Shown here one piece after another: positions 32,171 through 32,260 of a stretch of DNA of 64,000 nt. How positions within the stretch are numbered: position 1 is the first letter of the stretch; each line of letters begins with the position of its first letter. The translations under genes and the position numbers were made by a program. The stretch is taken from assembly GCF_041248615.1 (NCBI RefSeq), contig NZ_CP158426.1; one strand, written 5' to 3'. The notes below the pieces were generated by a model. The model had not been told where the DNA came from and ran no database searches. It worked only from the letters and a program-made list of their open reading frames with translations. Origin of the DNA: Escherichia coli (lineage in GTDB: Bacteria; Pseudomonadota; Gammaproteobacteria; Enterobacterales; Enterobacteriaceae).

Positions 32171-32200
32171 TTGACATGCAAGCACTTTTTACCGTATAGT
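32171..32200 (+). promoter_or_regulatory. Strong sigma70-like promoter with no downstream ORF
   Basis: Consensus -35 TTGACA (32171-32176), 18-bp spacer, -10 TATAGT (32195-32200). Confidence 0.45.
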
Positions 32201-32206
32201 GCGGGT

Positions 32207-32260
32207 TTCCTACCTACCCAGGAAATGAGTTCCTACCTACCCAGGAAATGAGTTCCTACA
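32207..32260. repeat. Perfect tandem repeat, 23-bp unit TTCCTACCTACCCAGGAAATGAG, 2.3 copies
   Basis: Identical units at 32207-32229 and 32230-32252 plus partial TTCCTACA; begins about 7 bp after the promoter -10. Confidence 0.8.

Follow-up and report, generated by a model that had tools for sequence, protein, structure and literature searches.

A palindromic tandem repeat near glyU in Escherichia coli is probably the orphaned iteron array of a phage satellite

Results

The DNA analyzed here, a 64,000-nucleotide stretch of Escherichia coli contig NZ_CP158426.1 that we call the window, contains a non-coding region in which a promoter-like site, a perfect 23-bp tandem repeat, an AT-rich stretch and a palindrome follow one another. 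We read the repeat, with a probability of roughly 0.7, as an array of iterons at the replication origin of a ~13-kb integrative phage satellite, orphaned in this genome because the insertion sequence IS1 removed the initiator gene. The promoter-like site, TTGACA-N18-TATAGT (32171–32200, + strand), matches the sigma-70 consensus at 11 of 12 positions; its hexamers occupy 32171–32176 and 32195–32200 on either side of the 18-nt spacer, and six nucleotides (GCGGGT) separate the second from the repeat. Tandem Repeats Finder (TRF) reports TTCCTACCTACCCAGGAAATGAG in 2.3 copies at 32207–32259 (period 23, 100% matches, score 106). A better description of the functional unit is a 14-bp palindrome, AGGAAATGAGTTCC, found at 32220–32233 and 32243–32256 with a period of 23 bp and flanked by half-sites; the 23-mer is a circular permutation of that unit. 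We predict these palindromes to be iterons of the type called class I below. The perfect tandem repeat is not due to chance, and related arrays recur in other genomes.

Directly to the right of the array lies a predicted DNA-unwinding element, a 68-nt stretch of 88% A+T (32260–32327) that contains an 11-bp repeat, ACTACAATTAA, in 2.4 copies (TRF) and is the one place in the 2.5-kb non-coding region where A+T reaches 85% or more over 60 nt. It is followed by the palindrome GGGATA-N20-TATCCC (32328–32359), whose arms at 32328–32333 and 32354–32359 are 20 nt apart and enclose an inner CCC-gtta-GGG. No open reading frame (ORF) of more than 65 aa lies between 30995 and 33520. An earlier note, made from the letters of this stretch alone, had listed the promoter-like site, two exact repeat copies plus a partial third, the AT-rich sequence, the palindrome and the missing ORF, and we find each of them where it had placed them; the repeat itself stands, while its choice of the 23-mer as the unit gives way to a 14-bp palindrome every 23 bp.

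In other strains the same non-coding stretch continues into a full element, at 99.8% identity in locus L002 of our comparison set. Intact elements are ~12.9 kb long and encode, in order, a 60-aa ORF, a helix-turn-helix (HTH) protein of ~190–230 aa, small ORFs, a major capsid protein of 342–343 aa (Pfam Phage_cap_E), a tape-measure-like protein of ~610 aa (613 aa), a Dit-like protein and a tyrosine integrase; they have no terminase gene. They sit at glyU or thrW, and once in an IncF plasmid. The 613-aa protein is ~30% identical to tape-measure-like proteins of Stephanstirmvirinae coliphages, inny included. The satellite capsid protein had no tblastn match in phage records, and the whole non-coding region had none in a distant blastn search of 50,697 phage records. 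A plasmid collection yielded two divergent copies of the non-coding region.

The element belongs to a family that has been described. Barth, Dunham and Seed (2023; PMC10448857) predicted 224 putative E. coli phage satellites with genes for a major capsid protein, a decoration protein, a tape measure, a baseplate protein and an integrase, with modular RepA_N domains and with mirrored phage nucleases. Their Table S6 lists CP009050, which is L005/L008 of the present set, at 12,893 bp. Genes for an initiator-like protein (RepA_N in their classification), major capsid, tape-measure-like and baseplate-like proteins and an integrase, beside a tRNA gene, are present in L002 and in L005/L008, and the window keeps only the left third. 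In the part of the supplementary files of PMC10448857 that was available, LT599825, the accession of a genome identical to the window, is not listed. The earlier note had named membership of a wider known element as grounds for giving up its reading, and the repeats do belong to one, namely this satellite family. One further copy, of class II (see below), lies on a conjugative IncFIB/IncFIC plasmid (L003, NZ_CP126938.1, 31034–52170), where it is cut by three IS3-family elements and adjoins sopAB; the satellite family can therefore reach plasmids.

In intact elements the HTH protein is encoded 1.2–1.4 kb downstream of the array. It combines a variable N-terminal domain, a winged helix in the AlphaFold2 (AF2) model, with a conserved acidic C-terminal half that ends in IYDSIPF or DFDIPF (e.g. 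...IYDSIPF and ...YEDFDIPF, L002:10692–11357 and L007:9857–10549). In PHROG the protein matched families of replication-initiation, DnaD-like and O-like proteins, all weakly (E = 4e-6 to 2e-3), and searches of Protein Data Bank sequences returned nothing specific. The C-terminal ending is similar to the acidic tip, DDDIPF, of E. coli SSB, which suggests recruitment of SSB-interacting host replication proteins. A 99-aa protein encoded beside this initiator-like protein has a weak match, far below the cutoff, to the NCBIfam model for DNA polymerase III psi (E = 1.6e-4).

The type of array follows the type of initiator. The N-terminal domains fall into five classes, each with its own palindrome: class I with type T, GGAA-N5-TTCC (10 loci); class II with type G, GTAAC-N5-GTTAC (3 loci); class III with type A, ACAG-N4-CTGT (7 loci); class IV with type S, GGTCA-N3-TGAGC (9 loci); and class X with type P, ATCAA-N3/4-TGATA (3 loci). 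The dominant palindrome matched the N-terminal class at all 32 loci in this computational covariation. In classes II, III, IV and X the initiator N-terminus is alone in tracking the array. A cognate initiator is encoded in the intact relatives L002, L005 and L030–L032, among others. Besides E. coli, initiators of class X are found, at ~73% identity, in Klebsiella, Enterobacter, Citrobacter, Cronobacter and Kluyvera.

The pairing of array and class is not simple lineage linkage: the flanks are common to several classes and recombine independently of it. Two AT-rich haplotypes cross class boundaries, that of the window resembling class III loci and that of L005 resembling class II and IV loci, and over 140 bp the non-coding region of the window matches a class II locus at 100% identity. 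Classes II and IV, and likewise classes III and IV, have in common the ORF that directly precedes the initiator gene, and class I initiators are found with three different downstream gene sets. To the left, an identical serine recombinase (WP_001273869.1) stands beside T-type and G-type arrays, and in L031 and L032 a 192-aa tyrosine recombinase (L031 2150–2728; L032 2096–2674) replaces the 183-aa serine recombinase beside an unaltered T array. The position left of the non-coding region looks like a slot for exchangeable small recombinases, perhaps for multimer resolution.

Alignment of the relatives showed that the conserved unit is AGGAAATGAGTTCC every 22–23 bp; its arms never vary, and the spacer between palindromes does (ACCTACCC or ATCACCT). 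Comparing repeat copy number across related genomes, as the earlier note had proposed, gave 2.3 copies for L002, L031 and the window itself and 3.3 for L030 and L032; a sister lineage has four or five sites, and the relatives overall have 3 to 5 sites at 22–23 bp. In other variants the place left of the AT-rich stretch is taken by unrelated palindromes at similar spacing: GTAAC-N5-GTTAC, AACAG-N4-CTGTT, TAGGTCAYWGTGAGCTAGGGGG or CCCCTATCAA-N3-TGATACCC. The same AT-rich stretch and GGGATA...TATCCC palindrome lie right of the array in almost all variants, and the AT-rich stretch is kept beside every array type that retains the anchor. The palindrome was found in 22 of the 29 loci included in that count, with at most three mismatches to the 18-mer GGGATACCCGTTAGGGAG. 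Upstream of the active array, palindromes of other classes persist as fossil single copies, ordered G, S, A, P, T (L036 4340–4450; L005 about 7915–7945; L007 about 7895–7945); the pattern suggests that each new array is inserted beside the AT-rich stretch and that the older ones are decaying.

The class I binding domain has counterparts in phages. Queries with the class I protein retrieved proteins of 321–367 aa from Stephanstirmvirinae coliphages and phage-size contigs, in which two tandem HTH_36 domains precede a GIY-YIG-superfamily domain (Pfam MUG113, E = 4.6e-4; T5orf172, E = 0.11) that by tblastn matches endonucleases of T5-like phages. The first HTH domain differs from protein to protein. 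It is of class II in inny gp184 (L033 2438–3541; 88% over 140 aa), of class III in an unannotated ORF of BI-EHEC (L035 about 2501–3463) and P0023 (92.6%) and in P0022 (85.6%), and of class IV in P0035, a truncated protein of 173 aa that matches at 100% over 128 aa before a class I domain begins; muut gp154 (L034 2399–3397) has a class X first domain, whose identity falls outside this comparison. The second domain is always of class I, 89–90% identical to L005 residues 30–122 and to satellite initiators such as WP_000594462.1, and 75% to the L002 type; it was the constant module in all four full-length proteins examined from phages or phage-size contigs. Six of the 50,697 phage records matched P0022 by tblastn over at least 80% of its length. 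Homologues of odn have been reported in Inny, Muut and Mt1B1_P17, with a second RepA_N domain described as lacking detectable homology to the cognate satellite repA (PMC10448857). By our comparison, the constant second domain corresponds to class I satellites, whose predicted sites are the repeat studied here. BI-EHEC (Phapecoctavirus) is a further carrier of an Odn-like nuclease.

Gene annotation was taken from NZ_LT599825.1 (E. coli NRZ14408), which is 100% identical to the window. The island that holds the element begins just right of the tRNA-Gly(CCC) gene glyU (28659–28732, + strand; ARAGORN, Rfam and the NZ_LT599825.1 annotation) and continues with two small genes, a serine recombinase gene, the 2.5 kb without genes and IS1. 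The recombinase gene (30443–30994, − strand), annotated as 'recombinase family protein', forms the left edge of the non-coding region and encodes a small 183-aa enzyme of the resolvase/invertase type, whose orthologue in L008 matches the PHROG 125 DNA invertase (E = 7e-62). The non-coding region itself (30995–33505, + strand; 64% A+T) is built, mosaic-like, from conserved blocks and variable palindrome arrays, with block-wise homology to L002–L007, and part of 32040–32420 is present in 493 of 5426 E. coli genomes. At its right end is the 5′ part of the element's first small ORF (33364–33505, + strand; 60 aa when intact), cut by a 768-bp IS1 (33506–34273, − strand). The IS1 replaces the satellite from codon 48 of that ORF onward, including the initiator, capsid, tape-measure-like, Dit-like and integrase genes. 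It has no target-site duplication, its flanks being TGCACTAAAA on one side and GACAAATGCG on the other, and it adjoins the yqeI pseudogene of an ETT2 remnant, which together indicate that an IS1-mediated deletion took the right-hand portion of the satellite along with part of ETT2. What the window holds of the satellite is its decayed left third.

Promoter, small-RNA and other readings of the array

The earlier note had emphasized a promoter firing into the repeat to give a small RNA. Such an RNA would start near 32207 and carry two repeated hairpins as pairing or protein-binding modules; the 11/12 match, a pattern that occurs once in the 64-kb window, and the 5-bp hairpin possible in each repeat unit would suit it. 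However, matches of at least 11/12 arose in 285 of 2000 dinucleotide shuffles of the region (14%), and sigma-70-like sites in the non-coding region are not enriched (7 observed vs. 10.1 ± 3.7 in shuffles). In L002 the −10 hexamer is TATGGT. The −35 hexamer and spacer lie in a 149-bp segment (32046–32194) that is present in the window, L002 and L030 and absent from L031 and L032, where the array is intact, and no promoter-like site occurs at the equivalent position in other array variants. TTGACA-N18-TATAGT is tied to a variable 149-bp segment and is no conserved component of the system. The RNA itself fares no better: there is no terminator downstream of the array, Rfam 15 gave no match to the region at gathering thresholds and two chance-level matches elsewhere in the region at E up to 10, the predicted fold of 32207–32420 is unremarkable (z = −1.27), and the palindrome arms are invariant, with variable spacers and no compensatory changes. 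Moreover, the array is swapped for unrelated palindromes in step with the DNA-binding domain. We consider a small RNA highly improbable. A P4- or C4-type immunity RNA was likewise dropped, with no Rfam match and no conserved promoter. A second promoter-like site, TTGACA-N17-TATTGT (33219–33247, + strand), lies ~115 bp upstream of the first satellite ORF, and the class X satellite L036 has a TTGACA-N17 site at the equivalent place (about 5420–5455); this site, rather than 32171–32200, is probably the element's early promoter. In the window it reads into the cut ORF and then IS1.

The palindromes could also be operators, through which the winged-helix protein or a 58–62-aa protein regulates nearby promoters, TTGACA-N18-TATAGT included, with the array perhaps titrating that protein. 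The −10 hexamer does lie 6 bp from the first half-site, fold and sequence searches do return only generic winged-helix regulators, and the 58–62-aa ORF (cluster c5) is exclusive to T-type loci. Inside this ORF, ~63 bp upstream of the initiator start, every class I locus also has a T-like palindrome, GGGAAATCAATTCC (L002 about 10629; L005 about 9333), which may be an operator for autoregulation or may have arisen by chance from the coding sequence. However, the closest relatives with the array lack the promoter or carry it in mutated form, arrays in other variants have no promoter before them, every class has its array beside the same AT-rich stretch and palindrome, the protein has replication-initiator matches in PHROG and a conserved C-terminal domain unrelated to regulators, and outside class I the initiator N-terminus is the one feature that tracks the array. 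We regard a purely regulatory array as unlikely, while noting that regulation and initiation are not mutually exclusive, because iteron-binding initiators commonly autoregulate. Still less credence goes to a role in packaging (as a pac or terminase-binding site) or as the site on which the neighboring recombinase acts, both of which we find very hard to sustain. A helper's packaging proteins must recognize a satellite that has no terminase gene of its own, and the recombinase gene is 1.2 kb from the array; but array type follows initiator class and not any helper-related gene, and the repeats are not the recombinase's sites, because the identical enzyme sits beside T-type and G-type arrays. 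The exchange for a tyrosine recombinase that leaves the T array unchanged also speaks against them. An invertible segment for the serine recombinase was not convincing either, the inverted repeats being short and weak (left vs. right flank Smith-Waterman score 22; shuffle mean 14, maximum 24.5). Finally, the repeat in this genome may be an inert fossil without present function. We lean toward this: the initiator gene and all genes to its right have been removed by an IS1 without target duplication, and copy number drifts from 2.3 to 3.3. A class I protein of another satellite or a phage nuclease could still bind the array, however, and inertness concerns present activity and not origin, so it is compatible with an array that arose as origin iterons.

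Iterons of a satellite origin remain the reading we prefer among the options of the earlier note, because the repeat type tracks the initiator class and the repeat adjoins the AT-richest stretch; its iteron pair is supported and its small RNA is not. The window has direct repeats at a spacing of about two helical turns (2.3 copies, 23 bp) beside an 88% A+T region, initiator specificity matches iteron type across the 32 loci, and the cognate initiator, absent from the window, is encoded on the same element in intact relatives. The palindromes also have the form of RepA_N-type iterons (PMC7145576), with AGGAA-ATGAG-TTCCT in the window and AACAG-AAAA-CTGTT in class III.

Several observations weigh against this reading. 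A tblastn search found no initiator homologue anywhere in the 64-kb window, which leaves the array without a cognate protein in cis, and the class IV loci L007 and L026 carry a full four-site T-type secondary array and no class I protein. Many of the 32 loci are near-identical, so the independent observations are far fewer than 32. In class I loci, the exclusive 58–62-aa ORF, which overlaps the initiator start, is therefore a second candidate binder, for that class alone. The region from 30995 to 33520 has no DnaA boxes (TTWTNCACA); such boxes are present in many, though not all, iteron-type origins. Fold and sequence searches place the initiator-like protein only among generic winged-helix regulators. 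Our Pfam scan gave HTH_36 and not RepA_N, and the RepA_N call for these N-terminal domains rests on the HHsearch of PMC10448857.

Other features of the non-coding region and window

Left of the array are two 59–60-bp units with the palindrome TCTAAAG-N3/4-CTTTAGA (31913–32026) and half-sites near 32068 and 32142; L030, L031 and L032 have one such unit each. This palindrome matches none of the five initiator classes. We had considered these units as iterons of a fifth, muut-type class and rejected the idea, class X satellites carrying ATCAA-N3/4-TGATA instead. The heptamer ATTGCAC has 5 of its 16 window occurrences in the 2.5-kb non-coding region, in a mirrored arrangement (31500 and 31546 on the + strand; 32596, 32718 and 32735 on the − strand), and it is also part of a conserved block, CATTGCACAGATG, upstream of arrays in other variants. 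In the conserved non-coding part downstream of the origin-like core, a T/G-rich segment (32423–32464) and a C/A-rich segment (32782–32817) form arms of 32–36 nt that are 75–81% complementary and 317–326 nt apart; they could pair as a long-range stem in RNA or DNA, or reflect composition alone. Elsewhere in the window, the genes for the small RNAs OmrA and OmrB (46881–46962 and 47077–47164; Rfam RF00079, 86 and 97 bits) are in their usual chromosomal neighborhood and are unrelated to the repeat.

Discussion

From the computed anatomy, covariation, mosaicism, phage-nuclease homology and truncation, we infer protein binding, origin firing and nuclease targeting as follows. In intact copies, initiator dimers would bind the AGGAAATGAGTTCC palindromes through the class I winged-helix domain. 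With a spacing of two helical turns between palindromes, this would melt the neighboring 88% A+T stretch and bring in host replication proteins. Specificity would be modular, each of the five DNA-binding classes of initiator having its own palindrome type at the same position; the chimeric GIY-YIG-superfamily nucleases of Stephanstirmvirinae are built from the same binding domains. Unless a class I protein reaches it in trans, the array in the window is probably inert.

It is conceivable, though we think it a long shot, that orphan and secondary arrays (that of the window and the T-type arrays of L007 and L026) are kept for action in trans, either as decoys or sinks for the class I domain of Odn-like nucleases or by titrating initiators that arriving class I satellites encode. 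The variable promoter, by driving transcription into the array, might modulate such an effect. If this were true, trans-acting arrays would alter the outcome of phage infection or of satellite superinfection.

For this genome, the meaning of the repeat is modest: it is a relic of a satellite destroyed by IS1, not a new small RNA or regulatory device. For the family, the arrays give concrete candidate sequences for origins and nuclease targets, with five initiator classes, in a tractable E. coli/coliphage system. The elements are those of Barth et al. (2023), who had predicted the family and its Odn-like nucleases. What is new here is that the arrays are located and sorted into five types and that the second nuclease domain is matched to class I; the copy in the window differs from theirs in that it is a truncated remnant and lacks repA. 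Neither 'iteron' nor 'noncoding' appears in the main text of PMC10448857, and we found no description in the literature of the DNA targets of these satellites' initiators or of the Odn-like nucleases.

The closest parallel is the PLE satellite of Vibrio cholerae. The RepA of PLE attaches to semi-palindromic iterons within a large non-coding region; its RepA_N domain varies in step with the origin, and its C-terminus is conserved (PMC7145576; PMC8263062). The phage ICP1 encodes Odn, in which a RepA_N-like domain (42% identity) is joined to a T5orf172 nuclease that cuts the iterons (PMC7145576; PMC8263062). Both systems thus have an integrative satellite with several repeat types in a large non-coding region, an initiator whose variable N-terminus covaries with the origin and whose C-terminus is conserved, and a helper-type phage with a chimeric T5orf172/GIY-YIG nuclease that copies the satellite's binding domain. 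Unlike PLE and ICP1, the present system has E. coli as its host and Stephanstirmvirinae myoviruses as its phages. It comprises five specificity classes vs. two in PLE, and the phage nucleases have two tandem binding domains at 86–100% identity to the satellite domains vs. 42% for Odn. The E. coli satellites also encode capsid-like, tape-measure-like and Dit-like proteins, and their binding and replication are predicted here from sequence.

The layout also recalls the lambda origin, where palindromic iterons are bound by the N-terminal domain of O and an AT-rich stretch and then a palindrome lie alongside. In O-type initiators of related phages, the N-terminus is type-specific and the C-terminus conserved. 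The satellites share both the succession of iterons, AT-rich stretch and palindrome and the division of the initiator into variable and conserved halves. However, the lambda origin lies inside the O gene, whereas the satellite array is ~1.2–1.4 kb upstream of the initiator gene, and the similarity of the protein to O-like families is weak (PHROG 391, E = 2e-3). Iteron plasmids such as pSC101, RK2, P1 and F have direct repeats ~22 bp apart, an AT-rich unwinding region and their own Rep. The satellites resemble them in repeat spacing, in the adjacent AT-rich region and in a cognate initiator on the same replicon. They differ in having no DnaA boxes in the region and an initiator that is not of the Rep_3 type, and in that the satellite is normally integrated and presumably activated by phage infection.

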